A stretch of DNA of 64,000 nt from an uncultured Methylomirabilota bacterium (GCA_963705305.1 OY970067.1:5056001-5120000), one strand, 5' to 3'. Positions 38,276-55,383 are shown, counted from the stretch's first letter. The notes: generated by a model from the letters alone, not told the origin. Numbers and translations: made by a program.

Positions 38276-38513
38276 TAGCGCGGTGCTCAAGAACTCATGT
38301 TGACCCAGGCTGCTCAAAAAAGTCCAGATGTCCCTCGACATCGCTCGGGACCGTGAGCCTGTCGAACGGCAAGGCGGCGTCACCCATCCCTTGGGATGGA
38401 TACCCGCCGCGGGGTACCCACCGGAGGTGGGTCGGAGGCGTACTTACACGTACGCCGCAGCGAGTGCCCGAGCGCACCAACGCCGCAGATGGGCCTTTTT
38501 CAGCAGCCCATTA
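38276..38513. repeat. MITE-like repeat, copy 3 (additional nested insert)
   Basis: same termini; extra CACCCATCCCTTGGGATGG hairpin. Confidence 0.88.
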
Positions 38514-38523
38514 GGAGGGAGCG

Positions 38524-38811
38524 ATGGCAGCATATTTTATTGTGAACATCGACGTGCAGGATGCGGCTGGATTCGAGGCGTACCGGAAGGCAGTCCCCCC
38601 CACCCTCGCCCAGTACGGCGGGCGGTACCTCGTGCGGGGCGGCTCGCACGAGACCCTGGAGGGCACCTGGCGGCCGACCCGCCTCGTGGTGCTGGAATTC
38701 CCCACCATGGCCGCGGCGCGGCAGTGGTACACATCCGAAGCGTACCAGAAGATCAAGCCCCTCCGCCTCCAGGCTGCCAAGGGCGACATGGTCCTCGTCG
38801 AGGGTGTTTAG
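38524..38811 (+). CDS. DUF1330-family protein
   Basis: YGGRYLVRGG, LEG.W, VLEFP, WY.S.AYQ, VLVEG. Confidence 0.92.
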   Translation: MAAYFIVNIDVQDAAGFEAYRKAVPPTLAQYGGRYLVRGGSHETLEGTWRPTRLVVLEFPTMAAARQWYTSEAYQKIKPLRLQAAKGDMVLVEGV

Positions 38812-39876
38812 GCAAAGAGGCCGGCCCATTCGCCCCCACGAAGTTGGCGGTGTGAAAGATCATATAGCTTGGTGCGTGGGCCTGGCCGGAAGAACAGGGC
38901 AGCCGGGAGGCAGCAGTTGAGCGGATTGCGATAAATACTCTTTGGGGTGCCGATTTGTACTTGGGGAGGCTGGGTGAAGCGACTCTTTTCAAGATATGAC
39001 AGATAATGCAACGTCCCCTAGACGACGATTTAGATATGGAAAATAACTGGGCCTAGCGGCGGACCCCCCCGTCTCGGACGTAAGCTAGGTGGGAACGGAT
39101 CGAGACCGACCTGCCTGCCTGATGACGCCACCAATCCTCTGCCTCAGCGTTGTACTGGCCTAAGAACAACCGATTCCCCTCCGCCTTGACAAGCATACCT
39201 GCCCTCTTTAGGTTACCCTCGCAATCGTCGGGATTGGGTATCGGGGTCTCATCATGGGGCTCGTCAAGGTGCGGCGCGTGCGGCTACCAGTCTGGCGACG
39301 CGCCGCTTTTCCCACCTCCTTTGGGCCTTCTCACCTCACCTTGGGGGTACCTGACCCTGAGTACGTGTACGCGACAGCCCTGCTCGCCGGTGGGACGGCA
39401 GCAGTTGATACAAGCCAGGTGCACACGGAAAGCGCCTTGCGCCCGCATTGGGCGCTCTCCGTCGAGGTGGGGGGGCCGGTTCACCTCCCGAGATGCTGTG
39501 CCATCCTCGAGCGCTTCCCCCACTCCGCGAAAAAGTTCGGCGATTTCCTTCTGGCCATCTGGATTCCATCGGCCATGCAATCTGGTTTCAAGGCAATTGG
39601 GGGGGAACGACAGGCCGCGGAATCCGTGGGGAGAACGCACCCGCGCCGATGACGGATCCCGGCGAGCGCAGAATAGAGCGGTAGGGGCGACCATTCCGCG
39701 TGTAGCCAGAGCTTCCGGGATAATCGGGGAGGGTGGGCAAGAACAATTGACAAACAACCGCGATCCTCTGTCCTCTTTGGACGATCCCTGCAAGCGCACC
39801 TCGTGTGGCGCGTGGTTGCTGGAGGGTCTTTCTAAGCCTCATGGTGGAAACCGGTATTGTGAAAAGGAGGGCGACC

Positions 39877-41262
39877 ATGTCGGGAGATAGGGGCAAACTT
39901 CCGCGGAAGTCGGCTGCTAAGCCAAGTGGGAGGTCCATCACTCGGCGCGGATTTCTCGCAGGGCTCGCCGGGGCCACCGCAGGCGCCGTGGCCCTCGACT
40001 CTCTTGTCCGGCCCTCGCTGGCACGTGCGGCAGCGCCCGTGAAATCCAGCGAGCCCATCGAATTCATCTATTGGAGTGTTTTCGGCCAGTCCCCGCCATT
40101 CGTCACGGCTTTTGGGGAGGTAGGCACCAAGTTCCTTCGAGCCAATGGGTTTCCGAATGCGACGGTGAAGGCGGAAATCGCGAGCTTCGAAGGGTACGAG
40201 CAGAAGTACCTGAGCGCCTTCGCCAGCGGGAAGGGGCCGGACATCTTCGTCGGAATGGCTCCGGCATGGGGCATGGATGGCGGCCTGAATCCGGTAGCCG
40301 TCCTGCTCCCGCAAGATCTGGCGAAACTATACGACAGCAAGCTGGCGCCTTTCCTTGCCTCGTGGGGCACATACAAAGGCAAGCGGTATGGCTTTGCGGT
40401 GGAAGGGCTCATGCAGATGCTGTACATCAACACCGATCATTTCAAGGAGGCCGGCCTCGACCCCAACAAGGCCCCGCGGACCTCGGAAGAATTCGTCGAG
40501 GCTGCGCAGAAGCTGACGAAGCGTGATGCCTCGGGAAAGATCATCCGATCAGGGTATCACCCGCGCTACCTGGGGCAGGGATTGGGCGTCGCGGACAAGT
40601 TCCTCCCGATTGTCCACATCTTCGGTGGGCGGATGCTCTCTGAGGACATGAAGAAGGCCGACGGGTACATTAACAGTCCGAACTCCATCGCCGCATTCCA
40701 GTTCTATTACGACCTGGTGTACAAGTATAAGGTCGTCAACTTGGACTTCGGCATGCCGGAGCGCGCATTCGAGCAGGGCCTGACCTCCATGGTGTTCCGC
40801 GAAGGGTACCTCGCGGGGGATATTCTGGAGAAGGCGCCGAATATCCATTTCAAGGTCTTCCCCTACATCGTTGCAACGAAAGACTACGCACCGAGTAACC
40901 TGCTCACCTGGGCCAATATGGTCAGCAAGAACTGCAAGCATCAGGATATTGCTTTTGAATTGTTCCGCCTCTTGGCCTGCGTCGAGGCCGATGTGGGCTT
41001 GCATAAACCGGCCCTGTACGAACCGGTCCTGACGGACAGCTACAAGCCGCCGACCAATGAGTACCTCAGGAGCCTGCCGTACGGACAAGCCCTGATGGAG
41101 TCCCTCAAGAAGAAGATCGGACCAGAGTATATCCATCCGAAGCTCGATGCCATTGCGTATGTCGTCGGCGAAGAACTGACCGCCTGCGTGAAAGGAACAG
41201 CGCCGAAGGTCGCTGCGGACCGGGCGGCCAAGCGGATTGAAGAGGCCCTTGCGAGCTTCTAG
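39877..41262 (+). CDS. carbohydrate ABC transporter substrate-binding protein with Tat signal
   Basis: ITRRGFL twin-arginine motif; GPDIF, LYIN.D.FKEAGLDP. Confidence 0.88.
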   Translation: MSGDRGKLPRKSAAKPSGRSITRRGFLAGLAGATAGAVALDSLVRPSLARAAAPVKSSEPIEFIYWSVFGQSPPFVTAFGEVGTKFLRANGFPNATVKAEIASFEGYEQKYLSAFASGKGPDIFVGMAPAWGMDGGLNPVAVLLPQDLAKLYDSKLAPFLASWGTYKGKRYGFAVEGLMQMLYINTDHFKEAGLDPNKAPRTSEEFVEAAQKLTKRDASGKIIRSGYHPRYLGQGLGVADKFLPIVHIFGGRMLSEDMKKADGYINSPNSIAAFQFYYDLVYKYKVVNLDFGMPERAFEQGLTSMVFREGYLAGDILEKAPNIHFKVFPYIVATKDYAPSNLLTWANMVSKNCKHQDIAFELFRLLACVEADVGLHKPALYEPVLTDSYKPPTNEYLRSLPYGQALMESLKKKIGPEYIHPKLDAIAYVVGEELTACVKGTAPKVAADRAAKRIEEALASF

Positions 41263-41276
41263 CGGTTACAAGCGAA

Positions 41277-41314
41277 TCCGGCCGAGGCGATCCCCCATCC
41301 TGCCTCGGCCGGAT
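41277..41314 (+). terminator. hairpin after SBP gene (attenuator or mRNA stabiliser)
   Basis: TCCGGCCGAGGC...GCCTCGGCCGGA stem. Confidence 0.55.
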
Positions 41315-41349
41315 TCGTGGAAGTAGCCTTCTGCCTCGGAAGGACAGAA

Positions 41350-42333
41350 ATGTTCAGGACCGATCGGTACTCTAAGTACGGATTTTTCTTCGTCCTTCCA
41401 TCCGTCATTTACTTTGGACTTGTCTTTTTTTACCCTCTCGTCCTCGCCTTCTGGAATTCCTTCCGGAACGTCAACATCATGCTGGGGACAAGCGAGTGGG
41501 TGGGTCTGGACAAATTCAGCAAGGTGGTGCATCACGCTGGCTTTCAAGGCAGCGTGGCCACGACCTTTGTGTATGTGCTGATAGTCGTCCCTGCACTCCT
41601 GGTGTTCTCCCTCGCCTTGTCCGCAATCATCGTTAATTTGCGCGAAAAGGTCTATAGCGATGCTGCCTCGACCATCTTTTTCCTCCCGGTAATCACGTCG
41701 CTCGTAAGCGCGGGCATCATCTGGCAATGGATTTTCGACCCCACCCTGGGGGTGGTGAATAACGTCCTCAGCTCTCTCGGTGTCCACCACCTGCCGAGCT
41801 GGCTCCAGAGTCCGACCCTGGCTCTGCCGACCGTCTCGGTTATTGGCTTCTGGGCGCGGCTCGGCTTCGATGTCGTAATCTTCGTCACCGCCATGAACAG
41901 CGTCCCGGGATCGTACTACGAGGCCGCAAAAATCGACGGCGCGTCCGAGCTTCAACAGTTCCTCCGCATCACTCTCCCGCTTCTCAATCCTCAGATCTTC
42001 ATGGTCTCGACGATTGAATTTATCTTTGCATTCAAGGTGTTTGACCAAATTTTCGTGACAACCCGCGGAGGCCCTTCCGGGGCTACCAAGACGGTGATGG
42101 TGTTCCTCCTGAAGGACGTCTTCAATTATGACTATGGGGCGGCATGCGCCATCACCGTGCTTCTCCTCTGTTTCCTTTTCGCGATTAGCTTCCTGCAGTG
42201 GAAAGTCTTTAGCGCCATGAACGCAACGGAGGGCTCGGTTCAACGGCCACGTGGCAAGAAGGCGAACGTCAGGATTGCTTCGGGACGGACTATTCCAAAT
42301 CGAACCACCATTTCAGGTCGGGTCGATCCGTAA
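41350..42333 (+). CDS. carbohydrate ABC permease
   Basis: FFLPVITS, YEAAKIDGA, ITLPLL, FKVFDQI..TT.GGP. Confidence 0.9.
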   Translation: MFRTDRYSKYGFFFVLPSVIYFGLVFFYPLVLAFWNSFRNVNIMLGTSEWVGLDKFSKVVHHAGFQGSVATTFVYVLIVVPALLVFSLALSAIIVNLREKVYSDAASTIFFLPVITSLVSAGIIWQWIFDPTLGVVNNVLSSLGVHHLPSWLQSPTLALPTVSVIGFWARLGFDVVIFVTAMNSVPGSYYEAAKIDGASELQQFLRITLPLLNPQIFMVSTIEFIFAFKVFDQIFVTTRGGPSGATKTVMVFLLKDVFNYDYGAACAITVLLLCFLFAISFLQWKVFSAMNATEGSVQRPRGKKANVRIASGRTIPNRTTISGRVDP

Positions 42334-42414
42334 TTCCTGCAGTTGTCAGGGGCTTCTCCTGACAGGCTGCCCGACAGAACATTGGCCCTTCATCAGGCGA
42401 TTGGGAGAGAGACC

Positions 42415-43290
42415 ATGGGAGGCGTCAGGCTCGGGCGGAGACTGCCGTGGCTTGGGAGTCGGATGTTCTTGTTGCTCATGCTGCTGTTTATGCTTCTCCC
42501 ATTTCTGATGATGGTTGTGACTTCATTCAAGAGCGCGCCAGAGATCAACGATGTGGCCAGCCGAGGGCTGCTCCAGCGGACGTTTCCGGACAACTGGCTC
42601 AACTTCGAAAACTACCGGGCGGTTATCACTGGAACGTCCCCCATGCTACATGGCGTGTCCTTCTTGATATTTATCCGGAACTCCCTCATCATCACCCTGG
42701 GCAGTTTGGTCCCGGCCCTCCTGCTCGCCGTCACGGCAGGCTACGGATTCGCCAAATTTACCTTCCCAGGGAAGAATGTCTTTTTCTTTCTGCTGCTCGG
42801 TCTCCTCATGGTCCCCATTGAGTCGATCAGCATTCCCCTCTACCTGGTTGTCGCCCGCCTAGGGCTTGTCGACACGTACCTTGGAATCATGCTGCCCTTC
42901 ATGATATCCGCCTTCGGGATGTTCATGATCAAGCAAGCCGTGGAGGATATCCCCCAGGACTATATTGACGCTGCCAGAGTGGATGGATGCGGGGAATTCT
43001 GGATCCTATTCAACGTCATCCTGCCGATGATCCGCCCCACGGTGGTGACCCTGGTCGTCATCAAGTTCTTGTGGACGTGGAACGAGTACTTCTGGCCCTA
43101 CCTCGTTACGAACGCGGATGAGATGAAACCTATTACTTTGGGGTTGGCCAAATTCACCAATGAGCTTTTTCAAGATTACGGTCCCCTGACAGCCAGCGTT
43201 GTGCTGACGATCATCCCAACCCTCATTATCTTCATTCTCTCTCGGCGGTTCATCGTTCGAAGTATCACGGTCTCCGGACTAAAGGCGTAG
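42415..43290 (+). CDS. carbohydrate ABC permease
   Basis: AGYGFAK..FPGK, DAARVDG, WTWNEYFWP. Confidence 0.92.
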   Translation: MGGVRLGRRLPWLGSRMFLLLMLLFMLLPFLMMVVTSFKSAPEINDVASRGLLQRTFPDNWLNFENYRAVITGTSPMLHGVSFLIFIRNSLIITLGSLVPALLLAVTAGYGFAKFTFPGKNVFFFLLLGLLMVPIESISIPLYLVVARLGLVDTYLGIMLPFMISAFGMFMIKQAVEDIPQDYIDAARVDGCGEFWILFNVILPMIRPTVVTLVVIKFLWTWNEYFWPYLVTNADEMKPITLGLAKFTNELFQDYGPLTASVVLTIIPTLIIFILSRRFIVRSITVSGLKA

Positions 43291-43481
43291 CGGACCATGG
43301 AAGTACTTTGTACGAGTCCGCCCGAGTCCCCGCCAGCCTTGGTGTCTACACTGGGGGCTCACGGATCAGCCGTTTCCAGAGTCGCTATTCACGAATCCTC
43401 CCATGATGAAAGGCACCGCTCTTTCTTGAACACGAGACCGTTCCCTTTAGACTCGGCCCCCGATGTTGGACGGAGGCAACA

Positions 43482-44624
43482 ATGAACTGCCGTGAGCGGG
43501 CGTTGGCCGCCCTCAACCACACTGAACCCGACCGCGTTCCCCTCGATTTCGGTGGGCGCCAGACCACATTGCATATGTACGCGCATGAGGCCCTGATGCA
43601 TCATCTCGGCCTCACGGGGCCAAAGCCCACGATCCGGAACTACCACACATATCTGGTCGATCCCGACCCGCAGCTCCTGCAGCGCTTCGAGCGGGTGAGC
43701 ACCTTCTTCCTCCCGAAGCCTCCCTCAGGCTACGTATTCAAAATTGACCCCGCCACAAATTCCTACGTGGATGAATGGGGGACGACCTTTCACATGCCGC
43801 CAAACGGCTATTATTACGACATCGCCGCGGTCCCCCTACCCGATGCAGAGACGGAAGCTGACCTGGAGAAGTACCGCTGGCCGAACCCGACTGACCCGGC
43901 ACGGATCGAAGGGCTGCCCGAAAAGATTGCGGCAGCCTATCAGGCTGGCGAGAAGGTCATCATGATGTGCACACCCACGCAGGGGCTCTGGGAACAGGCA
44001 TGGTACATGTTCGGGCTGGAGCAGGCGTTCATGAACCTGGCCGGCAACCAGCCGCTCATGGAGGCCTTCACCCAGCGGATCATGGAGTGGCAGATGGCTT
44101 TCTGGACCATGGCCCTGAGTCAAGTGGGTGACTACCTCGACGTAGTGCAGATCAATGATGACCTGGGAACCCAGCACGGGCCGATGATGGCCCCCGCCAC
44201 CTTCCGGAAGATCTACAAGCCCCGGCTCCGGCAGCTCGTCGCGGCCATCAAGCAGCGGACCAAGGCCCGCGTGTATCTCCACTCCTGCGGCTCCATCTAC
44301 CGGCTCATCCCCGACCTGATCGAGGTCGGCGTGGACATCCTGAACCCCGTGCAGGTCAACGCGGCCGAGATGGACTCGGCGCGGCTCAAGCGGGAGTTCG
44401 GCAAAGACCTGACCTTCTGGGGCGGCGGCTGCGACCCGGTCGTCATGGGGACGGGGACGGTTGCCCAGGTGGTGGAGGACGTCAAGCGCCGCATCCACGA
44501 CCTGGCGCCCGGCGGCGGGTTCGTCTTCGGCTCGGTGCACAACATCCAGGCCAACGTCCCGCCGGAGAACATCGTGGCCATGTTCGAAGCTGCGCAAGCA
44601 TTTGGCCGATATCCAGTGAGTTAG
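43482..44624 (+). CDS. uroporphyrinogen decarboxylase / MtaA-CmuA superfamily protein
   Basis: EPDRVPLD, DEWG, DDLGTQ, LHSCG, ILNPVQ, FWGGG, VHNIQ..VPPEN. Confidence 0.88.
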   Translation: MNCRERALAALNHTEPDRVPLDFGGRQTTLHMYAHEALMHHLGLTGPKPTIRNYHTYLVDPDPQLLQRFERVSTFFLPKPPSGYVFKIDPATNSYVDEWGTTFHMPPNGYYYDIAAVPLPDAETEADLEKYRWPNPTDPARIEGLPEKIAAAYQAGEKVIMMCTPTQGLWEQAWYMFGLEQAFMNLAGNQPLMEAFTQRIMEWQMAFWTMALSQVGDYLDVVQINDDLGTQHGPMMAPATFRKIYKPRLRQLVAAIKQRTKARVYLHSCGSIYRLIPDLIEVGVDILNPVQVNAAEMDSARLKREFGKDLTFWGGGCDPVVMGTGTVAQVVEDVKRRIHDLAPGGGFVFGSVHNIQANVPPENIVAMFEAAQAFGRYPVS

Positions 44625-44689
44625 CGCTGACCCGAAAATAGCTCCGGCGACCAGCGCATGCGCAGCCCGTAATAGGGGACCCGGCCGTT

Positions 44690-44980
44690 TCTGCGCTGTC
44701 AAGGCACATTCCTCCTCGCGATGCCGAGTCCTGAACGCATCTCACACCTGCTGCCTGCCGTCGTTCCCCCGGGACCGCTCCCGGATGGTCTCTCACGCCC
44801 CACCGTAGTGGTCGCATCCGGCCTGCTCGCTGCCACCCGAGCGGCCTACCCGGCCTCGTCCGGGCTGCTGAGAGCGGGAGCGGCGCGCCAGGGTCCCCCG
44901 GCGGTCCCACCGGGCCGCCACGTTGCATGAATCGCGCTGCCAGCTCCCCGGGGAAGACAGACGCTGTCCCGCCGGCCGGC
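44690..44980 (-). ncRNA. candidate IS110 bridge/seek RNA region (3' non-coding end)
   Basis: ~290 nt structured non-coding stretch right after the IS110 recombinase stop; long-range GGGACCGC/GCGGTCCC stem; boundaries uncertain. Confidence 0.5.
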
Positions 44981-46186
44981 TCAGCGGACCTGCCGCTGGA
45001 GCCCGCCCGTCCGGCGTGGGTCGTACGGGGTCCCGCTCCGCCACACGCCCCAGACGACCCGGAGCACTTTCGCCGCCAGTTCGACGATCGCCTTGAAGCC
45101 AGCGAAGCGGTCCCCCTGGCGCTTCGCTTTCAAGGCGGCGAGCCGGGCCCGCCCCGCGGCGGTCCGCGCCAGTCCCAGCGCCGCGTGGTACAGCGCCCAA
45201 CGCAGAAGGCTGCGCCCGCACTTGGAGATTCGCGCCTGCCCCGCGAACTGCCCGGATTGCACCCGCACGATGTCCAGCCCCGCGAGCTTCCGGAGCTGGG
45301 AGAACTTCGTGAACCAGGCGATGTCCCCGATCTCGGCCAGGAGGATCGCGGCCACGGTCGGCCCGACCCCCGGGATCGTCCGGAGGAGCGCGTAGGCCGG
45401 GAGCCGCTCGGCGAGGGGCGTCAGGGCCTGCTCGACCGCGGCGGTGCGGGCCTGAACAGCATCGACCTGGGCCCCGAGGTCCGCACAGGCCGTGGCGAGC
45501 CCGACCGGCAGCCGTCCCTTCGCCACCGCTGGGCGCCCGGGGGCCGCCGGCTCCCAGGCCTGGAGCACCGCCGGCAGCTCCGCCCGCAGGCGGTTGGGCA
45601 GGGGCTCCCCCATCGGCCCGAGGGCCGGGCGGAGGGTCGTGCGCCAGCGCGCCTTGCAGGCCGCCAGCTCGCTCCGGGCCCGGCGGAGGCACTTGACCAA
45701 GTGCCGCAACTCGACGCGGGGGCCATCGGGCCGGCTGTAGAACAGCACCTTCCCCTGTTCGAGGAGGTCGGCGCAGTTGGCGGCGTCCTTCCGGTCGCCC
45801 TTGTCCCAGGTCCCGTCCTGGGTCCGGCGGTTCCAGTAGGCCACGCTGCTGGAGAACAGGACAACGTCGGCGCCCTGCGTCTCCAGGAACACCGCGAGGG
45901 CCTGGTGGTAGGTCCCCGTGGGCTCGAGGCCACAGACCACCTCGCGGCACCCGGTGCTCCGCTGGGCCTGCTGGATCCGCGCCCAGAGCTGGGCGAAGCC
46001 CCGGGTGGTGTTCGGGATCGTGAGGGTGGGCACGACCACCCGGGTGTGGGCCTGCCGGAGGTGCACCACGTGTTCGACTTGGGCAACGTCGATCCCGACC
46101 AGGAGGCGCTGGCGGTTGATGCGTAAGGTGGCCTTCAGCTCCCGGAACCGCTTGACACGCGTGGCATTGTCTCGCATCGTAGCCAT
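44981..46186 (-). CDS. IS110-family recombinase/transposase
   Basis: VGIDVA, GLEPTG.Y, KGDRKDA (DEDD RuvC); TIPGVG..AEIG, AGL....QSG (catalytic Ser), ISKCG..LLRWALY. Confidence 0.94.
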   Translation of the reverse strand: MATMRDNATRVKRFRELKATLRINRQRLLVGIDVAQVEHVVHLRQAHTRVVVPTLTIPNTTRGFAQLWARIQQAQRSTGCREVVCGLEPTGTYHQALAVFLETQGADVVLFSSSVAYWNRRTQDGTWDKGDRKDAANCADLLEQGKVLFYSRPDGPRVELRHLVKCLRRARSELAACKARWRTTLRPALGPMGEPLPNRLRAELPAVLQAWEPAAPGRPAVAKGRLPVGLATACADLGAQVDAVQARTAAVEQALTPLAERLPAYALLRTIPGVGPTVAAILLAEIGDIAWFTKFSQLRKLAGLDIVRVQSGQFAGQARISKCGRSLLRWALYHAALGLARTAAGRARLAALKAKRQGDRFAGFKAIVELAAKVLRVVWGVWRSGTPYDPRRTGGLQRQVR

Positions 46187-46335
46187 GGGGTTCTTCCTCC
46201 TCTGTACGGGGTGAGTGGATGGCTCTCTGCACACCCCTACCAATAGCGAGGAAGAACCCCTTTTGGAACCTGCCATTTTCACCAGAAGGGGCCCAGACTG
46301 TGGGAGTCTAGTCGCTGGTACCTGGTTCATGCGGG

Positions 46336-46462
46336 TAATACTACGCTGCAAGTTTCGTCGTCTTGGAGCTGGGGACCCTGCCGGAATCCGGGCCTGGGAA
46401 AAAGGTCTCCCCGGCGGGGGCATATCAACCCAGGCCGAGAGAGTCTGAAGGGTCCCCGATTT
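46336..46462 (+). repeat. ~128-bp TIR element, copy A (diverged)
   Basis: CGCTGCAAGTTTCGTCGTCTTGGAG...AGGGTCCCCGATTT. Confidence 0.8.
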
Positions 46463-46474
46463 CGAACACGCCCT

Positions 46475-46732
46475 CTACGCCTTCGGCTTCGCCCTCCCTG
46501 CCCGCCGCTTCGCCCAGTAGACCTTCATGCGCTGGCTCACGGCCTTCCGGGCCGCCGCGCTCATCGGCCTGCGTCCCTTGGCCCGCCTCTTTGCAGGAAC
46601 ACGCCTTGCTTGCCCAAGTTGATCTCCAGCCAGGATCTGCCGGATTCCGGCAATCTGGCGGTCCAGCCGGGCGCGCTCGCTCTCCAGTTCGGCCAGGGCT
46701 TTCCGAAGGGTGGTGTTGAGATTCGTCAGCAT
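46475..46732 (-). CDS. small basic coiled-coil protein, candidate nucleoid-associated protein
   Basis: GGAGGAG RBS; LAELESERARLDRQIA coiled coil; RRPMSAAARKAVSQRMKVYWAKRR tail. Confidence 0.8.
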   Translation of the reverse strand: MLTNLNTTLRKALAELESERARLDRQIAGIRQILAGDQLGQARRVPAKRRAKGRRPMSAAARKAVSQRMKVYWAKRRAGRAKPKA

Positions 46733-47387
46733 GAGCGTGTCTCCTCCCATAAGTAAGGGGGTGAGTGGAACGGCTAGCAACATATTGTGGCTTGCCGCCC
46801 GAGTTAATTGGAGTGCTCAAAGATTACTATAGCATAGCAGGAGTGATTACTAGGTTCCAGTGAATCTAGAAAGCCGTGGTTCCCACTGACCATAGAGAGC
46901 AAACTAGCACGTGCGTCGATCCACCCCCAGCCAACCGTGAATCTTGACTCTTCCCCAGGCAAGGAGTAGGCTCCTACCCGGTCGCCAACGACTACCACCT
47001 CCATGGGCGGCTCCACCACCTCTACCGATGCGCACCCCGGGCCATCCGGCCCTTGTACCACTTGGATGACCAATTCCGCATTGCACTGTTGCCGGATCGT
47101 GTGGGGGCGGCGGCAAATGGATCCTGGGACGTTGGGTTAGGGTGGACAATCCTCATCGGCCACCCGTATTCTTCGCCGATCGTCAGAGCCCGTCCACATC
47201 TACCTCTCGCGGAGGCGGCCACCTGCGCGGGGAAGATGCCCTTCCAGTGCGGCAGCACCGCCCCGGCCTACGAGCTTCTCGCCCAGGTGCTCGACCAGCT
47301 CGGCCGGCTGGAGTCGGTGCAACATAGAGGGTGAATCCGGCGTACGGAATGCTCGTCTTAGGGACAGGCGCAAAGCGGAAGAAAAAA

Positions 47388-48173
47388 ATGCACGATGTGC
47401 CAACTGAAGAAGAGTCGGTGTCCTCCCAGCAACGGCGGACAACCCGTACCGAGATACTCCTCGTACTGGGGGTATCTCTCGGATACAGTACTGTCTACTC
47501 GGTAATCGACCTCATTGGAAAGTTGACCTCACACCTGGCGCTCTCGGCGCAGATGACGACACTCAATCCATCGCGAGCAACCGGTCGCCCATTGCTCGAT
47601 CTGTCGTTTCAACTCGCAAGAATTCTGTTTGGCTTCGTTCCAGCCTTGCTCGCTCTTCATTTCCTGGAACGCAGTGGTCGGCACGACCACATGGGGTTCC
47701 GAACGCCCCGTCGCAGCTTCGACATCGGGTCGGGCACTGCGCTCGCGGCATTGATTGGGATCCCCGGGCTGGCCTTCTACGTTGCCATGCGCGCAATCGG
47801 CTTGAACACAACGGTGATCCCGGAGGCATTGCCTTGGGTCTGGTGGACCGTTCCTGTTCTCGTGCTGTCTGCCGTTCAGAATGCCTTTCTGGAAGAGGTG
47901 GTCGTCGTTGGATACCTGATTCCCCGTCTTCGCGAGATGCCCTGGGGGGTAGGGGCGGCGGTGGCAGCGAGCGCGCTGCTTCGCGGCTCCTACCATCTCT
48001 ATCAAGGTTTCGGCGGCTTTATTGGGAATGTCGTCATGGGAATTGTCTTCGCCCTATTCTTCCTTCGTTACAAGCGGGTGAATCCCTTGATTATCGCTCA
48101 TGCCATCCTTGATACCGTGGCATTCGTCGGATACGCCCTCCTCCACAATCTTCTGAGCGCTCATATCCTGTAA
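47388..48173 (+). CDS. CPBP (CAAX/Abi) intramembrane metalloprotease
   Basis: NAFLEEVVVVGY, RGSYHLYQG, IIAHAILD; start uncertain. Confidence 0.9.
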   Translation: MHDVPTEEESVSSQQRRTTRTEILLVLGVSLGYSTVYSVIDLIGKLTSHLALSAQMTTLNPSRATGRPLLDLSFQLARILFGFVPALLALHFLERSGRHDHMGFRTPRRSFDIGSGTALAALIGIPGLAFYVAMRAIGLNTTVIPEALPWVWWTVPVLVLSAVQNAFLEEVVVVGYLIPRLREMPWGVGAAVAASALLRGSYHLYQGFGGFIGNVVMGIVFALFFLRYKRVNPLIIAHAILDTVAFVGYALLHNLLSAHIL

Positions 48174-48299
48174 TTGGAGTCGCTGCAATTTTCGTCGTCT
48201 TGGAGTTGGGGGGCCGGCCAGAATCTAGATCTGGCAGAATAGCCTCTCCAGCAGGGGCGCGTTAGCACAAGCTGACTATACTTGCAACGTCCCCCATTT
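48171..48299 (+). repeat. ~128-bp TIR element, copy B
   Basis: TAATTGGAGTCGCTGCAA...TTGCAACGTCCCCCATTT; about 90% identical to copy C by eye. Confidence 0.9.
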
Positions 48300-48392
48300 G
48301 ACTTTCAAGCATCACGCACGAAGGACTTCCTTTTCTCTGCCGCCACACTCACATTTCATGGCATATTGAGGAGTACCACCAGCCCTCTCCCA

Positions 48393-49685
48393 TTAAGGAC
48401 CAACATACCCCCCCAGCAGTCGCGGCAGGGCCAGGGAAAACCAGGGCACGTAGGCAAGCAGCAAGATCGTCCCGAACATTATGGCGATGAAGGGCCACAT
48501 CGGACTGAACAGGCTCCGCATTTCGACCCGGGCAATGGATGTCACGACGAAACAGGCGCTTCCAAGCGGCGGCGTTACGAGCGAGATGCCAGTGACAGCC
48601 AGCGCGAAGATCGCAAAATGGATCGGCGACATACCAACCCGACCCGCCATCGACATGAACAGCGGGACCAGTATTACTAGGGCCGGTATGCCATCCAACA
48701 GCGCCCCCATTAGCCAGAACAAGAGCATCAGCAGCGTGATGAACATTAAGTGGTGGTCAATGATGGATCCTGCAAAATCCGCTATGGCAAGCGACACCTG
48801 CGTGTATGCCATAAAATAAGCAATAGCTGAAGCTGCCCCAATGAGCCCGACGACAACGCCGGTCAGGCGAGCCGTGGAGACCAGCATCCTTCTTGCTACG
48901 TCCCAGGTAATTTCCTTATACACGACTACCCCGAGCAGTCCTGCATACACCACGGAGACTGCCGCTGCTTCTGTGGCTGTAAACACTCCGGAGAGGATGC
49001 CCCCGATGATAATCAGGGGGGCCAGGAGCGCAGGGATGGCCTGAATGGAAGCCTTTGCCACTTCCCTGAGCGAGAACTTGATGTCTTCGTTGCTGCGCTC
49101 CCGACCTGTTCTCGCCTTGTACCATATGACAATCGCTTTGCCGATGCCGATCAGAAGAGCCGGGAGGAGAGAGGCGAGGAATAGTTGCTTAATCGACAGG
49201 CCTGCAATGGTCCCTAAGACGATCATCGTTATCGATGGCGGGATCAGCACGCCGGTCCCGGCAGACGCGGCAACGATGCTCGACGCCCACTCCTTTCGAT
49301 AGCCTGCTTTCACCATGAGCGGGATCATGACTGACCCGATGGCCGCGGCATCGGCATTGACGGAGCCGGAGATGCCGGAGAACAGCATCGTGCCGAGCAC
49401 CACGGATATGCCCAGACCCCCAGACAGCCATCCTACGAGCACGATGACGAAGTTGGCAAGTCGGCTGGTAATGCCGCCCTTGTCCATGATCTCGCCGGCA
49501 AGCACGAAGAGGGGAATTGCGAGGAAGGTAAACGCGCTTATCCCGTGGAAGCACGTCAGCGCAAGGAGATTACCCGCCTGACCATTGAGGATCAGCGCCA
49601 CCCAAGTGCTCACGCCCATCGCTGCAAGGATCGGCGCCCCAAGCAGCAACAGAGCTGCAAAGATCAACAGCAGGATCAGCACCAT
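48393..49685 (-). CDS. dctM: TRAP transporter large permease
   Basis: LAIPLFVLAG, SGISGS..ADA, LIPPSI, GVFTATEAA, TPPLG. Confidence 0.93.
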   Translation of the reverse strand: MVLILLLIFAALLLLGAPILAAMGVSTWVALILNGQAGNLLALTCFHGISAFTFLAIPLFVLAGEIMDKGGITSRLANFVIVLVGWLSGGLGISVVLGTMLFSGISGSVNADAAAIGSVMIPLMVKAGYRKEWASSIVAASAGTGVLIPPSITMIVLGTIAGLSIKQLFLASLLPALLIGIGKAIVIWYKARTGRERSNEDIKFSLREVAKASIQAIPALLAPLIIIGGILSGVFTATEAAAVSVVYAGLLGVVVYKEITWDVARRMLVSTARLTGVVVGLIGAASAIAYFMAYTQVSLAIADFAGSIIDHHLMFITLLMLLFWLMGALLDGIPALVILVPLFMSMAGRVGMSPIHFAIFALAVTGISLVTPPLGSACFVVTSIARVEMRSLFSPMWPFIAIMFGTILLLAYVPWFSLALPRLLGGYVGP

Positions 49686-50182
49686 TGCTGGTCGCCCTCC
49701 TCTTGGCGACGTGCCATCGGCGTGGCCAAGGAGAGGTGCCATATGCCAAGTAAGCCCCCAACAGGCAGCCCGCTCAGGACGACCCAAATGGGCACGCCTA
49801 ATGCCGGTGAGTGTTCCACAGAATGGATCATTGCCAAATCGAGGCCGCCAAGACCCAACGCGAGGAATAAGCCGGCCATCGCGGCCCAACGGAGCCAGGC
49901 AACCATCTGCTCCCCAAGTCCCTTGAGTCTCGGCAGAACGTCCATGGTCACGTGGGCCCGCTCCCGCTGGGCAATGGCCATCCCAACGAAGGTGAGCCAC
50001 ACGAGGATATACGTGCACGCCTCTCCAGACCAAGAGAGCGGCCGGTCCAGAAAGAACCGAAACACGATTTGAAGCATTACGAGGCAGGTGACGACCGTGA
50101 GGAAAGCGATGGCGAGAGCGTTCTCAAGCTTGGTGACCTGACGATCGATCCATGCGGTGATCCGCCGATTCGATTCTCTCAT
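49676..50182 (-). CDS. dctQ: TRAP transporter small permease
   Basis: QIVFRF...LSWSGE, WLTFVG, HVTMD, SPALG. Confidence 0.9.
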   Translation of the reverse strand: MRESNRRITAWIDRQVTKLENALAIAFLTVVTCLVMLQIVFRFFLDRPLSWSGEACTYILVWLTFVGMAIAQRERAHVTMDVLPRLKGLGEQMVAWLRWAAMAGLFLALGLGGLDLAMIHSVEHSPALGVPIWVVLSGLPVGGLLGIWHLSLATPMARRQEEGDQQWC

Positions 50183-50273
50183 ATGCCAGCTTAGCGCGCT
50201 CAAGCAATCCTCCTTCCGCGAAAGGATTCCTCCTGGGGCAGGGGCCATTGCCCCTGCACCAGGGAACCTGGAT

Positions 50274-51314
50274 CTACTGGCTGTTCTTCAGAATCGTATA
50301 CAACTCGCCCAACGCCGGGCCGTACTTGTCCCACACCGGTCGCGTCGCCTTCTGGAACGCTGCGGCGTCCGTGTCGTTGATTTTCACGCCGGCGCGAACA
50401 GCGAGGGCAAAATTCTTAGCGTCGCCTTCCACCCAGGCCTTCCTCTCGTATGGAATGGTCTCCTTCCCCGCCTGCAGGATCGCCCTCTGTGCCTCGGGCG
50501 GCTGCGCATTGAACCACTTCACACTGACGAGGAAGGGGTCGACGCTGAAGAAATGATTTGTCTTCGAGAAGAAGGGCGCCACCTCGTTGTGCTTAGTCGT
50601 CAAGTAGTAGGTTATGGAATTCTCGGCCCCATCCACCACCCCTTGCTGAATCGCGTTATAGGTCTCCGCTGCTTCCAGGGGCGTGGCCTGGGCACCCATG
50701 GCGTTCAGCGTGTCAATCATGACCGCGTCCGGGATCGACCGGAGCCGCAGGTTCATCCGCTTGATGTCGTCGGGGGTGTGGATCGGGCCCTTGCGATTGT
50801 AGATGCTTCGCGATCCGGAGTAGAGGTAGCCGAGGACCTTAAATCCGTACTTCTCGCAGATGTCGGCGTAGGCCTTTCCGAGCGTGCCATCCTGTGCCGC
50901 AAAGAGCTTTTCGGTGCTGGTGAATTCAAAAGGCAGCCCCCAGAGTGCCAGACGCTTGTCGAAGCTGCTCAGGAACGAGGCTCCGGTTTCGGTCATTTCC
51001 AGCGATCCGGCTCGCACCTGCTCGTTCAGCTGCGTGTGCCCACCGAGGACACCGTTCATGAACGTCTTTACCTGGTACTCGCCGTTGGTGAGTTCGGAGA
51101 GCCGCTTGGCAAAGAATTGGTAGCCGAGGTACTCGGGGTTGTTTTCCGTAACTACATCCCCGATCCGAACGATCTTCACTTCCTTGGTTGCCGCTTGGGC
51201 CGTCGATTGCGGTCCGAAGACAAAACCGGGCATGAGGACCGCCACCAACGTCAGAACGGCCAGCGTGAGAACCAGTCTCCGTCGATCACCGCTCCTCCCT
51301 GCTCGCATCGTCAT
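50274..51314 (-). CDS. dctP: TRAP transporter substrate-binding protein
   Basis: LRLR, MGAQATP, YNAIQQGVVDGAEN. Confidence 0.93.
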   Translation of the reverse strand: MTMRAGRSGDRRRLVLTLAVLTLVAVLMPGFVFGPQSTAQAATKEVKIVRIGDVVTENNPEYLGYQFFAKRLSELTNGEYQVKTFMNGVLGGHTQLNEQVRAGSLEMTETGASFLSSFDKRLALWGLPFEFTSTEKLFAAQDGTLGKAYADICEKYGFKVLGYLYSGSRSIYNRKGPIHTPDDIKRMNLRLRSIPDAVMIDTLNAMGAQATPLEAAETYNAIQQGVVDGAENSITYYLTTKHNEVAPFFSKTNHFFSVDPFLVSVKWFNAQPPEAQRAILQAGKETIPYERKAWVEGDAKNFALAVRAGVKINDTDAAAFQKATRPVWDKYGPALGELYTILKNSQ

Positions 51315-51476
51315 CTCCTTTCTCCTGGCACCCTCAAGGTATCGGGATCGTCTCAGCTCCCGTGTTGCAGAGACATGGCGGTCACTCAGCGAACGCCGGG
51401 CGCGCCGAGACCCTTCCGTTCTGGGGAGTAGGCGCCCGGTGCGCCGCCGAAGTGAAACTGGGACATTGCGGATGGG

Positions 51477-52283
51477 CTAGGCATCGAGACGATAAAGCCG
51501 ACGCGGATTATCCCAAACGACCGTTCGGATCACATCCTCGCTCAGCCCCATTCTCCTCATTTCAAATACTGCCTTTGGCACGGCCAACGGATCAGATTCG
51601 AGGAGAGAACAATCGCTGTCAACCAGAATGTGCCTCGGATCGCCCCCCTTCACCGCCTCCGCAGCGTCCACCGGCCGCACCTTTCTCCACGGCTGCAGCG
51701 TGAGGGCAGCCATCGCCCCCAGATCCGTGATCATCGACACGACGGACGGCTGGCAATGATCGAAGATTACCTGATCAAATCGCACGCCGTGCTCCTTGAG
51801 TATCGGCACGTACCGTCCGATCCACGCTGCCTTATCGACCGGCGGCGTATGCAGCACAACGGGTTTCGAGAACTCCCGGGCCATGTCAAGTTGGGCGCGA
51901 AAGACTCTCTCCTGGACCTTCAGGTCCGGGCATGTCATGGAGGTGGGTTCGATGCCGATCTCGCCAATGCCCAGAATCTCCTTGTCATGCTCCTTCAGGT
52001 ACTCGTGCATCTTGGCAAGGCCAGCCTCGTAGTCCAGCGGCACCCCCACCATCGAAATCCCGAGGCATGCGTACGTCGTGATGCCAAAGTAGTACTGGGT
52101 CCGCCAGGCGTGATACGTTCGCACCCGGTCGCAGTGCTCGAAAATCACATGGGAACGGTAGTCTTTTTCGGCTTCCGGCACCGCGACCATCGAAATGACG
52201 GCCTCAACACCGGTAAGAGCCATGAGCTCCAGCGAGTGGTGGTTCAACGCGTCCACGTGCAGATGCGGGTCAATGAACCTCAT
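51477..52283 (-). CDS. TatD-like metal-dependent TIM-barrel hydrolase
   Basis: IDPHLH, GIGEIG, AQLDMA, VVLHTP, FDH, VDSD. Confidence 0.85.
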   Translation of the reverse strand: MRFIDPHLHVDALNHHSLELMALTGVEAVISMVAVPEAEKDYRSHVIFEHCDRVRTYHAWRTQYYFGITTYACLGISMVGVPLDYEAGLAKMHEYLKEHDKEILGIGEIGIEPTSMTCPDLKVQERVFRAQLDMAREFSKPVVLHTPPVDKAAWIGRYVPILKEHGVRFDQVIFDHCQPSVVSMITDLGAMAALTLQPWRKVRPVDAAEAVKGGDPRHILVDSDCSLLESDPLAVPKAVFEMRRMGLSEDVIRTVVWDNPRRLYRLDA

Positions 52284-52331
52284 CGTTTGGTCCTCCGCCC
52301 CAAAGCTCGACAATCGTTGTTACCCCGTGCC

Positions 52332-53510
52332 TCATAGCGCAGCCTCGTAGATTCGGCGAAGGTCGTCCCGCGTCGCATCGCGGGGGTTGTTCTCCAGACC
52401 GTAGCCCTGAAACGCAAAGAGGAACTCGAGGGCCGGCGCGATGTCGCTCGCCTGGAATCCGATCTCCGTCAGTCGCTCCGGCATCCCCAGATCGCGGCAG
52501 AGACCTCGCACGGCCGCGCTCGCTCTCCTGGCAGCCTCCATCGGCGCCAATCCTTCGATCCGCTCGCCCAGGAGTTGGGCGATGCGCCCGTACCGTTCCG
52601 GGCAGGCAACCAGATTGAACTCGATCACGTGGGGAAGAAGCAGGGCCAGCGCGGTCCCGTGGGATACATGAGCCTTCGCAGTCAGCGGATAGTTCATCGC
52701 GTGAATCAGCCCCGCGGATGAGCTCGTGTGCGCGGCCATGGCCAATGCCGCAGCCAACAGCATGTTGTATCGCGACTCGATGTGCTTTCTCCCCTTCGCA
52801 TAGGCGGTCCGGAGATTCCGGCCGACCAACTCAATCGCCTTCTCCGCATACATATCCGAGATCACGGTGGACTTCCATGCCCCATAGGCCTCAATAGCAT
52901 GGGTCAGGGCATCAATCCCGGTCTCCGCGGTCTGCCGCGGCGGCAGCTCCATGGTCAGGACTGGATCCAGCAGGACAAGATCGCAGCACATGAACCGGCT
53001 GAAGATCGGCTTCTTGAGGGCGTCACGGGCGTCCGTGATGATCGCGGACGTTGACCATTCGCTCCCCGTTCCCGCCGTGGTCGGGATCGCAACCTTGAAG
53101 AGCGCCGGTGTCTTGATTCGGTCTCTTCCTATCAGCTCATAAATGTCTCCCTCGTTCGTCACCAGCGCACTCGCCGCCTTGGCAATGTCGATGGAGCTCC
53201 CGCCGCCCACCGCGATCAACACATCCGCCGCTTCCTTGCGTGCGACCTCTGCACACTCTTCGACGACCTCTGTGGGACCGTTGGGAAGGGATCCGCCAAA
53301 GACTCCGAACGGAAGTGCGCATGCCTGGAGGGACTTCTCAACGTCTTCGAGCAGCCCGTGCTCGCGTACGGCCTTATCCGTCACGATGAGGGCGCGACAA
53401 AAGCCGCGCTCATGGAGCATCGGCCCGATTTGCTTGCGAACATCAACCCCGATCCACGTCTCGGGGACAAAGGCCAGAAAGATCCGACCGAGCTCCTCCA
53501 TACGCTTCAT
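52332..53510 (-). CDS. iron-containing alcohol dehydrogenase
   Basis: GGGSSIDIAK, PTTAGTGSE, DALTHAIE, H...HG metal ligands. Confidence 0.93.
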   Translation of the reverse strand: MKRMEELGRIFLAFVPETWIGVDVRKQIGPMLHERGFCRALIVTDKAVREHGLLEDVEKSLQACALPFGVFGGSLPNGPTEVVEECAEVARKEAADVLIAVGGGSSIDIAKAASALVTNEGDIYELIGRDRIKTPALFKVAIPTTAGTGSEWSTSAIITDARDALKKPIFSRFMCCDLVLLDPVLTMELPPRQTAETGIDALTHAIEAYGAWKSTVISDMYAEKAIELVGRNLRTAYAKGRKHIESRYNMLLAAALAMAAHTSSSAGLIHAMNYPLTAKAHVSHGTALALLLPHVIEFNLVACPERYGRIAQLLGERIEGLAPMEAARRASAAVRGLCRDLGMPERLTEIGFQASDIAPALEFLFAFQGYGLENNPRDATRDDLRRIYEAAL

Positions 53511-53811
53511 TCCTCCTTCCTGGCGAGGCGCCCGTCCCGAGACTCTGGGTGGCCTCACACCGAGCTTCGTCCCGGCACGGACACATCGTGCCGGGGCCGC
53601 CGGGCACCGTCATCGGGCCCCATTACACACCGCGGCGCGTCGGAGTCTCCTTGCCCGGCACCGGCGACGCGTCCAGCCGCCGACCGGACCCCCACCCGGC
53701 TGAGTGCCCGACGCCCCTGCCGTTTGGGCCGCTGGCCGTCTTTTCGACATGGCCGGGGGCGCGCCTTCCCGGTCCAGCCTCCTCCTCTCGAAGAGCGTGC
53801 CTCACTGATTG

Positions 53812-54516
53812 TCAGCGAGCGGGATCATGTGCCGAAACGGACTCCAGATGCCTCTGAAGCGCGGCCTCTTGCGTCCGATATGCGTTCTCCAGATGGTCAA
53901 GCAACACTGATTTGGCCTCTGTATATTGGCGAGCGCCGACCAGTGCGAGGATTTGGTGATGGGTTCCAGTAGGTCGCTCATATCCCTGCGGCACATTGAG
54001 CTTGATGTGCAGGTATTGGTATCTCGCCAGGCTGAAGTAGAGCGTCTGATAATAATGGCTCAGACGCGCATTCCTCGCCTCCATGACCAGGCGGGCATGG
54101 AAGTCGGTGATCTTCTCCCGGAAGACGAGAAACTCCTCTTGATCGCTATCGCTTGGTATTCTCAAGGTTTCCGCTTCTTGCAGGGCTTTTACGGCACTCG
54201 GAAGTTCTGTAACTCCTTTCTCCTCGAGAAGATCCAGAGCGGTGAGCTCTATCATCCTTCGAACCTGGTACACCTCGGTTAAGTCTTCTCGCGAAAGAGA
54301 GGTGACGAAGGTCCCTTTTCTGGGAAGATTTATAACAAGACGCTCTTCCTCCAGAATCCGGAATGCTTCCCTAAGGGGCCCTCTGCTTAGCTCGAGCTTT
54401 GCCGCAAACTCATTTTCGTGGATCTTTCGGCCACCAGGCAGTTCGCCACTGATTATCTGCCCCCGGATGTATCCCAAGAGCCTGCTGGGAAGATTATGTA
54501 CCTCCAGGAAATCCAC
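53812..54516 (-). CDS. GntR-family regulator (FCD)
   Basis: SRGPLREAFRILEEE, PRKGTFV, FH...N. Confidence 0.9.
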   Translation of the reverse strand: MDFLEVHNLPSRLLGYIRGQIISGELPGGRKIHENEFAAKLELSRGPLREAFRILEEERLVINLPRKGTFVTSLSREDLTEVYQVRRMIELTALDLLEEKGVTELPSAVKALQEAETLRIPSDSDQEEFLVFREKITDFHARLVMEARNARLSHYYQTLYFSLARYQYLHIKLNVPQGYERPTGTHHQILALVGARQYTEAKSVLLDHLENAYRTQEAALQRHLESVSAHDPAR

Positions 54517-54538
54517 GATACAACCTCTCTCATTTTAG

Positions 54539-54566
54539 TTGACAGTTGACAATCGACTATTGATCA
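54539..54566. promoter_or_regulatory. putative GntR operator (7-nt direct repeats)
   Basis: TTGACAG-TTGACAA-TCGACTA-TTGATCA just upstream of the regulator. Confidence 0.5.
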
Positions 54567-54957
54567 TAAATATGGCACATAGATTTTCAGTGTCAATACA
54601 AAAAATAAGAGACGATTCAACTCCGAAATAACGCCTACCTGACAAGTGCCAAGTGATTCGTTACACGAGGATGTGCCAACAGATCCGTGACAGCCCCTTA
54701 GAAACCGCCAATCCCAAGGGCCGGCCTGGGGTACAGGTATCAGGTGGCACACCGTGATTGGCAGGGGGATAGCTTGCGGACGCCAGAGACTGAGACTCGA
54801 GCATTGTCAGCTTCCAGGTGTGCGTGTAACGGATCTTATGGCACTTTTCGCTGTCACGGATCTGTTGGCACTTGTCACCTACCACTTCAGAGGGACTACT
54901 GACGGTCGTGCTGCCCCCACTCTTCTCAACTCTGCGCTCGTGATGCATCCTGGCGAA

Positions 54958-55086
54958 TAATCGGAGACGCTGCAATTTTCGTCGTCTTGGAGTTGGGGGG
55001 CCGGCCGGAATCTAGATCTGGCAGAATAGCCTCTCCAGCAGGGGCGCGTTGGCGCAAGCTGACTAAACTTGCAGGGTCCCCGATAT
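54958..55086 (+). repeat. ~128-bp TIR element, copy C
   Basis: TAATCGGAGACGCTGCAA...TTGCAGGGTCCCCGATAT. Confidence 0.9.
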
Positions 55087-55170
55087 CGGAACTCGGCAGG
55101 TCAGCCGCTCCCAGTTGGCACTCGCGAATTTCTCCCTGCCGGCCTCGTCGAGGGCTGTCTGTTCCAATCA

Positions 55171-55380
55171 TAATTGGGGACGTTGCCAATTTCGTCAACT
55201 TTCGGCGGTAACGACACCCCGCACCCCCACCCTCTTAACCCTCGGGGGCATCGGCCCCCATAATTGGGGACTCATGCAACTTTCGTCGTCTTTGAACTGG
55301 GGACCCAGGCGGAATCCGGGCTTGGCAGAAAGCTCTCCCTGGCGGAACAAGGTCAGCGCAGGCTGCCAGAACGCACCCCC
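55171..55380 (+). repeat. two further tandem diverged units of the same family
   Basis: TAATTGGGGACGTTGCCAATTTCGTC at 55171; TAATTGGGGACTCATGCAACTTTCGTCGTC at 55261. Confidence 0.75.
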
Positions 55381-55383
55381 TCC

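Follow-up and report, generated by a model that had tools for sequence, protein, structure and literature searches.

This study concerns a stretch of 64,000 nucleotides (nt) from the genome of an uncultured Methylomirabilota bacterium (GCA_963705305.1, OY970067.1:5056001-5120000), hereafter the window, in which short co-oriented sites reading TAATYGGRG on the plus strand, together with inverse ends reading GTCCCC, lie between accessory genes. The question raised by this locus is whether such sites are recombination sites at which gene modules were captured one by one, integron-like in logic, as the original prediction proposed, or whether they have some other origin. Very probably, the sites mark termini of Y1 transposons, present either as solo ends or as the outer ends of miniature, non-autonomous derivatives, along with a landing pad of an insertion sequence (IS), and are not cassette recombination sites. 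Both the repeat family and the island that holds it are real, yet they are ordinary mobile-element biology and not a gene-capture machine.

Counting of the motif supports the reality of the sites. TAATYGGRG was found six times in the window, every time on the plus strand and at the positions originally predicted, a number reached in none of 100 dinucleotide shuffles (mean 1.04, maximum 4), and the sequence likewise contains the variant site (44670) as well as GTCCCC ends near 39010, 46450, 48288 and 55076. The sites at 48171, 54958, 55171 and 55261 and the variant at 44670 are followed by a longer shared sequence, GAC-N2-3-TGCAA-N-TTTCGTCGTCTT..., and the GTCCCC inverse ends are the opposite ends of the same units as the TAATYGGRG heads. 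A weight matrix, 27 nt wide and trained on 94 genomic GGGGACG[TC]TGC sites, scored the plus-strand heads at 12.6 bits (48171), 20.0 bits (54958) and 26.7 bits (55171), and the inverse ends at 30.2 bits (39000-39026), 27.3 bits (48276-48302) and 18.7 bits (55063-55089), while nhmmer identified the inverse end at 46452 as the tail of the repeat copy termed R1 below. The score drops to 7.7 bits at 44670 because an IS interrupts the site, and to -6.5 bits at 55261 because of a 1-nt indel, yet the 55261 copy is placed in the repeat family by nhmmer (E ~1e-30). The sites at 39721 (-4.9 bits) and 46805 (-18.6 bits) have no repeat partner anywhere in the genome and, with their low scores, are therefore not counted as members. 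The single set of related sites that had been proposed consequently stands for five of the seven plus-strand sites and for all four inverse ends.

At the scale of the genome, the matrix scan that had been suggested as a check returned 137 sites of at least 16 bits, compared with 3 in a block-shuffled genome, and GGGGACGTTGC was counted 72 times, where base composition predicts about 8. The terminus consensus AATAGGGGACGTTGC, with its inverse GCAACGTCCCC, is the end of a Y1/HUH transposon family. For the inverse end near 39010, BLAST gave about 14 genomic matches 29-34 nt long, among them the right-hand ends of the Y1 elements at 481 and 502 kb. Two further candidate termini in the window, an occurrence of GCAACGTCCCC at 33887 and a matrix match at 42623-42649, lie within coding sequence, are probably due to chance and were rejected.

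The repeat family, here called R, is about 127 nt long and was defined by a repeat search of the window followed by two rounds of nhmmer; R1, R2, R3 and R5 align over ~127 nt. In the second round on the whole genome (E <=1e-3) 11 matches were obtained: seven in the island described below, one of them just past the window end, three at 2.108-2.113 Mb, and one at an intact Y1 element. In this element of ~1 kb (genome 6953-8024), a Y1 gene of 340 amino acids on the minus strand (6975-7994) lies between a single R head and a single R tail. The R head matches 6953-6985 and overlaps the final codons of the gene (K-T-T-stop), the R tail matches 7979-8033 on the opposite side, and R elements retain about 33 nt from either end of the element. 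Since R shares both ends with the intact element, R elements are thus, by sequence comparison, apparently internal-deletion (miniature) derivatives of one member, 6953-8024, of a multi-copy Y1 family. Head-tail pairs closer than 400 nt are rare, with six in the genome, R2 and R3 among them.

The encoded protein scores 30.4 bits with Pfam Y1_Tnp (cut-off 23), a family matched by 11 of the 12 paralogues aligned, and the histidines of the HUH motif (H65 and H67) and Y107 are invariant in the alignment of 12 paralogues (A1). Its genomic matches fall in 25 places, 13 of them full length at 47-69% identity. By reading of the flanks examined, inverted GGGGACG.../...CGTCCCC ends stand on both sides of 12 of these 13 full-length paralogues, the upstream end alone being present within the flank examined of the paralogue at 3087958. 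A common layout can be deciphered: an outer end reading ...(A)ATA-GGGGACGTTGC is followed by 10-14 element-specific letters, which are repeated inverted before GCAACGTCCCC at the far end, and the terminal inverted repeats of the family start (A)ATAGGGGACGTTGC.

Two further observations concern the Y1 family. The C-terminus of the transposase forms a helix-turn-helix resembling DnaA domain IV (profile against solved structures, E 0.0018), and Pfam Bac_DnaA_C matches 4 of the 12 paralogues; to our knowledge, Y1 elements combining terminal inverted repeats with a DnaA-like DNA-binding tail are an experimentally unexplored kind of HUH transposon. Upstream of the Y1 genes at 2525725, 481051, 502081, 738532 and 770017, one or two partial tandem copies of the outer inverted-repeat end (AATAGGGGACG-like) stand before that end, and these might be footprints of repeated insertion beside an existing end.

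Table 1. Features mapped at the locus (window coordinates unless genome coordinates are indicated)
Feature	Coordinates	Strand	Basis and remarks
R1 head (TAATAGGGGAC)	44670..44680	+	Sequence reading; split from body by the IS; AC at 44679-44680 is the crossover core
R1 body and tail	46345..46461	+	nhmmer E 2.8e-32, alignment
R2	48171..48301	+	Repeat family D2; nhmmer E 1.3e-36; TAAT head gives the TAA stop of the CAAX protease (reading frame ends at 48173)
R3	54958..55089	+	Repeat search, nhmmer; 93% identical to R2; R2 and R3 are direct repeats around the TRAP module
R4, short and degenerate, strong head and decayed tail	55171..55260	+	Head 26.7 bits; nhmmer only E 0.15
R5, head and body	55261..55388	+	nhmmer E 1.2e-30, alignment; decayed tail overlaps fic 3' end
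R6, full-length diverged member	63198..63337	+	nhmmer E 2.5e-28
R tail fragment beyond the window	genome 5120017-5120082		nhmmer
IS110-family insertion sequence, 1664 bp, CCGGCCG...ATACTAC	44681..46344	-	Genomic copies and junctions
IS110-family (DEDD) transposase gene, start codon approximate	44981..46189	-	Pfam, NCBIfam
Predicted bridge RNA, downstream of transposase gene	44790..44950	-	Guides match flanks and IS ends
Candidate left target guide (LTG)	44928-44920	-	ATGCAACGT, alignment of homologues
Candidate right target guide (RTG), GGGGGAC	44899-44893	-	8-letter motif searched, CGGGGGAC, at 44900-44893
Candidate left donor guide (LDG)	44855-44848	-	GGCCGGGT, equal to IS end and core
Candidate right donor guide (RDG)	about 44809-44805	-	ACTAC complements core and IS start
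Solo terminal inverted repeat of another Y1 subfamily (type at genome 481051/502081)	38990..39026	-	Matrix 30.2 bits; the inverse end originally placed at 39010
Strain-specific island, ~31.1 kb	33535..64000, on to ~64635 (genome 5089535-5120635)		Congener synteny

The original prediction had stated, wrongly, that no recombinase is present in the window; an IS110-family transposase is encoded on the minus strand at 44981-46189, and among the enzyme families that had been proposed for a search RAYT/Y1 and IS110 turned up. The protein carries the Pfam domains DEDD_Tnp_IS110 and Transposase_20 (E 4.8e-17 and 9.6e-22) and scores 210.1 bits with NCBIfam transpos_IS110 (NF033542; cut-off 140). Removing 44681-46344 from the sequence joins TAATAGGGG-AC to GCTGCAAGTTTCGTCG..., which restores the head of R2 and R3 in exact register: R1 is the element that received the IS, and the AC of GGGG-AC-GYTGC is the point of insertion. 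This genome has four copies, namely the window copy, copies at 2109476 and 4385375 (99.9% identical) and a copy at 2414142 (82%). In the diverged congener homologues only CCGGCCG...ATACTAC is conserved and the letters outside vary with the flank; the IS is therefore delimited as 44681-46344, with AC at both junctions. Alternative ends, (A)ATAGGGGAC...CTACGCTGC with an AA/GA core, were dropped on the same ground, as the outer letters of the diverged homologues follow the flank.

The insertion position ...GG(G/C)AC / G(T/C/A)(T/A)G... is shared by all four own copies and by 12 congener copies with both junctions readable (from G001, G006, G007, G008, G017, G018 and G020). The core AC is found at both junctions in 14 of these 16 copies; L090 and L078 read CC at one junction. 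Outside the IS, the own copies labelled C and D read into the inverted repeat belonging to the Y1 element at 1466834, on the right side of L043 the flank matches that of the Y1 element at 4483021 of the present genome, and an uninterrupted copy of its target adjoins the IS in L045. The proposal that the sites are insertion or recombination sites is accordingly upheld in so far as they are ends of mobile DNA into which IS110 homologues have inserted in the same sequence, and not upheld as regards cassette recombination. No terminal or subterminal inverted match of at least 6 nt was found within 80 nt of the IS ends, and the non-coding ends measure ~300 nt downstream and ~155 nt upstream.

A second, different IS110-family gene, recognised by the DEDD domain match only, was noticed at genome 2107036-2108241 (L002:7036-8241). 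Next to it (L002:8225-8260) lies a Y1-type head that is intact and belongs to a sister repeat subfamily, and the own IS copy labelled B is inserted in a head of that same subfamily.

Bridge RNAs of IS110-family elements specify the target by two guides: the LTG is identical to left target and core as read on the top strand, and the RTG is the reverse complement of core plus right target (Durrant et al. 2024, PMC11208160). In the downstream non-coding end of the present IS, aligned homologues display ATGCAACGT, a conserved hairpin (GGCGGCC...GGGACCGCC) and GGGGGAC, followed by GGCCGGGT and ACTAC, that is, the order LTG-RTG-LDG-RDG. By reading, the LTG ends in CAACGT in all nine lineages with GTTGC-class targets, whereas in the four lineages with GTAG-class targets it is CCTACGT in two, TTACGT in one and TAACGT in one; the single copy with a GAAGC-class target (L073) has the LTG AGCTTCGT, and its RTG GGGCAC matches the flank GGGCAC. 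Read in this manner, LTG and RTG appear to covary with three target classes across the homologues. Complementarity and covariation together point to a predicted bridge RNA that would guide the IS to the Y1 terminus. An initial LTG candidate, CAGCGT at 44966, had been replaced by ATGCAACGT after the homologues were aligned.

From these observations a sequence of events can be proposed. The transposase of the intact element at 6953-8024 would move R elements in trans. These have accumulated in the intergenic spacers of the 31-kb island, all in one orientation, as strand-specific, replication-coupled Y1 transposition would give. The Y1 terminus would in turn be the programmed target of the IS110-family element, the predicted guides of which match TGCAAC-GT-CCCC; as its junctions demonstrate, the IS entered the R1 head at the AC/GT core.

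The orientation of the copies was compared with the direction of replication. Judged by cumulative GC skew, replication starts around 1.25-1.85 Mb and ends around 4.1 Mb. Among the orientable R copies, five in the window and the intact element are on the plus strand and two at 2.11 Mb are on the minus strand, the two groups lying on opposite replichores, such that all eight have the same orientation relative to fork movement; this evidence is weak because the copies form only three clusters. Y1 transposases of the IS200/IS605 type are described as targeting the lagging-strand template (PMC6006769), and by analogy lagging-strand targeting may offer a ready reason for the co-orientation of R. 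The termini in general are clustered, with 60 of 136 neighbour gaps below 5 kb against ~15 expected, which partly reflects the two ends of single elements, and their local GC is 0.649 versus 0.660. The present island is among the richer 30-kb windows for termini, and not the richest.

The wider setting was delimited with congeners. Synteny with five of them is conserved up to window ~33532 in DNA searches, and in G020, G006 and G005 only 43-650 nt separate the homologue of window 31161-33532 from the next conserved stretch, which is homologous to genome 5120636-5124227; the present genome (G000) therefore carries ~31.1 kb which these three lack. The accessory island of the original prediction is thereby confirmed and is larger than noted, at ~31 kb, with the 16-kb region first delimited lying inside it. 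Its gene content had been named rightly according to open reading frames and domains (sugar ABC genes with URO-D, CAAX protease, TRAP module and fic), the TAA stop of the CAAX protease is indeed the TAA of the site (48171-48173), and the cargo is lower in GC, with 0.51-0.64 at 39-44 kb and 46-55 kb against 0.66-0.72 in the 8-31 kb core. DNA matches of the 36-56 kb region in 12 same-genus genomes comprise only the IS, the URO-D-like gene and two repeat families. As to the claim that sites mark module boundaries, they are intergenic as described, but the real borders of the 31-kb island are off all of them: both are plain intergenic DNA, with the nearest R fragment ~540 nt inside the right border, and the outer breakpoints relative to the three congeners thus fail to map to the sites. 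This comparison was made with species-level relatives and so shows the outer borders, not the variation of inner modules at R ends; no closer strain was found among the relatives, GTDB pattern matches, metagenome contigs or public runs.

Could the sites nevertheless be a gene-accretion platform, at which a dedicated enzyme inserts and excises modules singly as an integron does at attC? Their co-oriented and intergenic position, with one overlapping a stop codon, the truly accessory nature and GC mosaic of the island, and the 93% identical direct repeats R2 and R3 bracketing a 6.7-kb TRAP module would all agree with such a platform. The tyrosine recombinase that the integron-like logic calls for is however remote: Phage_integrase (PF00589) matches 26 genomic places, the nearest to the island being 4890365 and 5385-5519/5451273, more than 190 kb off, and none of 30 open reading frames scanned in window 35150-63933. 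The modules are moreover multi-gene, lie on either strand and carry their own regulators, as seen in the four plus-strand genes before R1 and the five minus-strand genes between R2 and R3 (dctM-dctP-tatD-like-Fe-ADH-gntR, including the GntR regulator), and the outer island breakpoints are not at a site. The sites are fully explained as ends of deletion derivatives of a transposon with a known intact copy. Nor is the repeat present in any of 60 relatives, where two weak BLAST matches were obtained, or in the 32 single matches of an 18-nt R pattern among GTDB representative genomes, which come from unrelated taxa and of which none fits the repeat hidden Markov model; a 22-nt R pattern gave no match in metagenome contigs. 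Dedicated cassette capture is thus extremely unlikely.

The same R2/R3 pair could be read as a composite, in which the outer ends of the pair and a Y1 transposase acting in trans moved the TRAP module as a unit; on that reading this module, if no other, would indeed be bounded by sites. R2 and R3 are mutually closest (93% versus 63-78% to other copies) and, 6787 nt apart, flank dctM-dctP-tatD-like-Fe-ADH-gntR exactly; on the other hand, local duplication of R would explain the 93% identity equally well, no DNA match to the unit exists in the 12 same-genus genomes, and neither a second copy of the unit nor an empty site was found, the only module protein searched in metagenomes (TatD-like) giving one 2-kb contig at 88% identity without usable context. 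With 29-31% protein identity, the TRAP module of the window is not related to the TRAP operon adjoining the intact Y1 element, and the candidate reading of one as a copy of the other was rejected. We regard such a composite as quite improbable. Hardly more can be said for elements kept by the host in a REP-like role, as terminators, mRNA stabilisers or protein-binding sites with mobile origin being secondary, which we consider very unlikely. The copies are intergenic, many directly behind a stop codon, and R3 folds end to end into a long hairpin (z -3.6 against shuffles with RNA parameters, -2.3 with DNA parameters), but the copies number only ~11 and fall into three clusters, of five elements tested four fold no better than shuffles, the tails of R4 and R5 have been lost to decay, and an Rfam scan of window 38000-57000 (E up to 1) gave no match to any family. 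A further idea is that Y1 termini act as landing pads which nucleate island growth, new Y1 elements and bridge-RNA-guided IS110 copies homing in and pairs of R such as R2/R3 mobilising the genes between them, integron-like without an integrase; if true, several hot regions of the genome would gather accessory DNA at termini of one orientation, a prospect that we judge decidedly improbable.

The preferred reading, that of miniature derivatives and solo ends of Y1 transposons with an IS landing pad, has to be held against several results that weigh on the other side. The end-to-end hairpins of R2, R4, R5 and R6 are no better than those of shuffled sequences, R3 being alone in this respect, and the mechanism by itself does not account for 7 of the 11 R matches sitting in one 31-kb island. 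No R copies were found outside this genome among the 60 relatives, GTDB representatives and metagenome contigs. The Y1 protein stays under the cut-off of NCBIfam REP_Tyr_transpos (NF047646; 59.8 versus 80 bits), and phmmer against solved structures gave no direct sequence match. With respect to the guides, the three near-identical own copies sit at GCAGC-GT with the LTG GCAAC-GT, one internal mismatch each; L075 agrees with its own LTG over four letters only; and in L084 and L078 the fifth letter of the RTG does not match. Neither transposition, nor an excision junction, nor a bridge RNA transcript was observed. In the public run X1, which held 22% of sampled words in the form of identical 250-340-nt contigs (X2 and X3 held next to none), the joints were uninformative, with sides of 20-25 nt and low likeness.

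Several features of the window apart from the sites deserve mention. The URO-D-like gene (43479-44614) has an 86% paralogue at genome 871484-872619 and 74-80% homologues in congeners, the similarity being restricted to the gene, and the R5 tail, now decayed, overlaps the 3' end of the Fic/DUF4172 gene (55384-56532). Upstream of gntR in the TRAP module, a spacer of 51% GC contains an inverted repeat of 53 nt with 75% complementarity (54640-54692 / 54825-54877), possibly an operator region or a further small mobile element. Two perfect inverted copies of 35 nt (18098-18132 / 20222-20256) enclose 2089 nt and might represent the ends of an insertion sequence or other mobile unit. A separate repeat of ~100-160 nt, unrelated to the Y1 termini, occurs at 35016-35169, 37499-37715 and 38275-38517; within this genome BLAST of 38401-38530 gave ~110 matches, congeners and also G022, which belongs to another family of the order, contain copies at 85-93% identity in many places, and there was no Rfam match. 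This repeat may represent an unknown RNA or else a miniature element in high copy number.

Overall, the integron-like lead is removed and replaced by a multi-copy Y1 family of TIRYT type, its miniatures and an IS110 lineage with a predicted bridge RNA aimed at a transposon end. The IS homologues of one genus, found in three target classes with matching guide letters, form a small natural data set on bridge RNA reprogramming, and the terminus motif is a useful annotation marker of variable regions in this genome. What remains most interesting is this IS110 guide retargeting series and the pile-up of co-oriented Y1 relics in variable regions.

In integrons, the integrase gene intI stands beside the array, attC borders read RYYYAAC/GTTRRRY, and cassettes are mostly single promoterless open reading frames in one orientation; IS1111-type elements are also known to insert in attC. 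The present array resembles attC arrays in having co-oriented imperfect palindromes of ~60-140 nt between accessory genes. It differs in that IntI is missing, the ends read (T)AATYGGRGAC and GTCCCC(G/C)AT, the supposed cassettes are operons on either strand, and the repeats are transposon-derived; the array thus departs from integrons in each defining trait examined, namely IntI, core motifs (by reading) and single-ORF (open reading frame) cassettes.

A closer likeness is found in TIRtrons/TIRYT, in which a RAYT-like gene lies between inverted repeats that start GGGGWSAS in one group, with both solo and paired ends (Di Nocera, De Gregorio & Rocco 2013, PMC3733652). Shared with them are a RAYT-like Y1/HUH gene flanked by terminal inverted repeats rather than REP hairpins, a GGGG motif opening these repeats, and moderately abundant solo and paired ends within one genome. 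The longer consensus GGGGWSAS agrees in part with the GGGGACGT of the present elements, at 6 of 8 positions. Different from that account are the presence here of 13 or more full-length paralogues that have diverged, each carrying an inner repeat specific to it, and the C-terminal helix-turn-helix in the manner of DnaA domain IV. The Y1 elements fit the TIRtron/TIRYT description, the comparison being made at the level of the general description. With REPINs and RAYTs (Bertels & Rainey 2011, PMC3116915; PMC3337134; PMC5581495), the R elements share short non-autonomous units with two inverted ends, ends common to the flanks of a Y1 gene, and possible movement in trans. They lack the GTAG-tagged REP hairpin, the NCBIfam RAYT score lies below its threshold, and as against ~1 RAYT per genome with hundreds of REPs or REPINs in RAYT/REPIN systems, 13 full-length paralogues accompany ~11 R matches here.

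For the IS, the nearest parallels are repeat-homing members of the IS110/IS1111 family, such as ISPpu9, which homes to REPs of Pseudomonas putida (PMC12288879, PMC8450116), IS4321/IS5075 in the inverted repeats of the Tn21 family, and IS1111-attC elements (cited in PMC11208160). The present IS likewise has a DEDD transposase, no inverted repeats of its own, one oriented position in the repeat of another element, a core dinucleotide shared by both junctions, and LTG-RTG-LDG-RDG-like segments around a hairpin. As in the IS1111 group, the RNA would lie in the long downstream end, although that group has subterminal inverted repeats of 7-17 bp and none of at least 6 nt was found here within 80 nt of the ends. 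Unlike the repeat-homing examples, the target is the terminus of a Y1 transposon, and the core is AC/GT as opposed to the CT of IS621.

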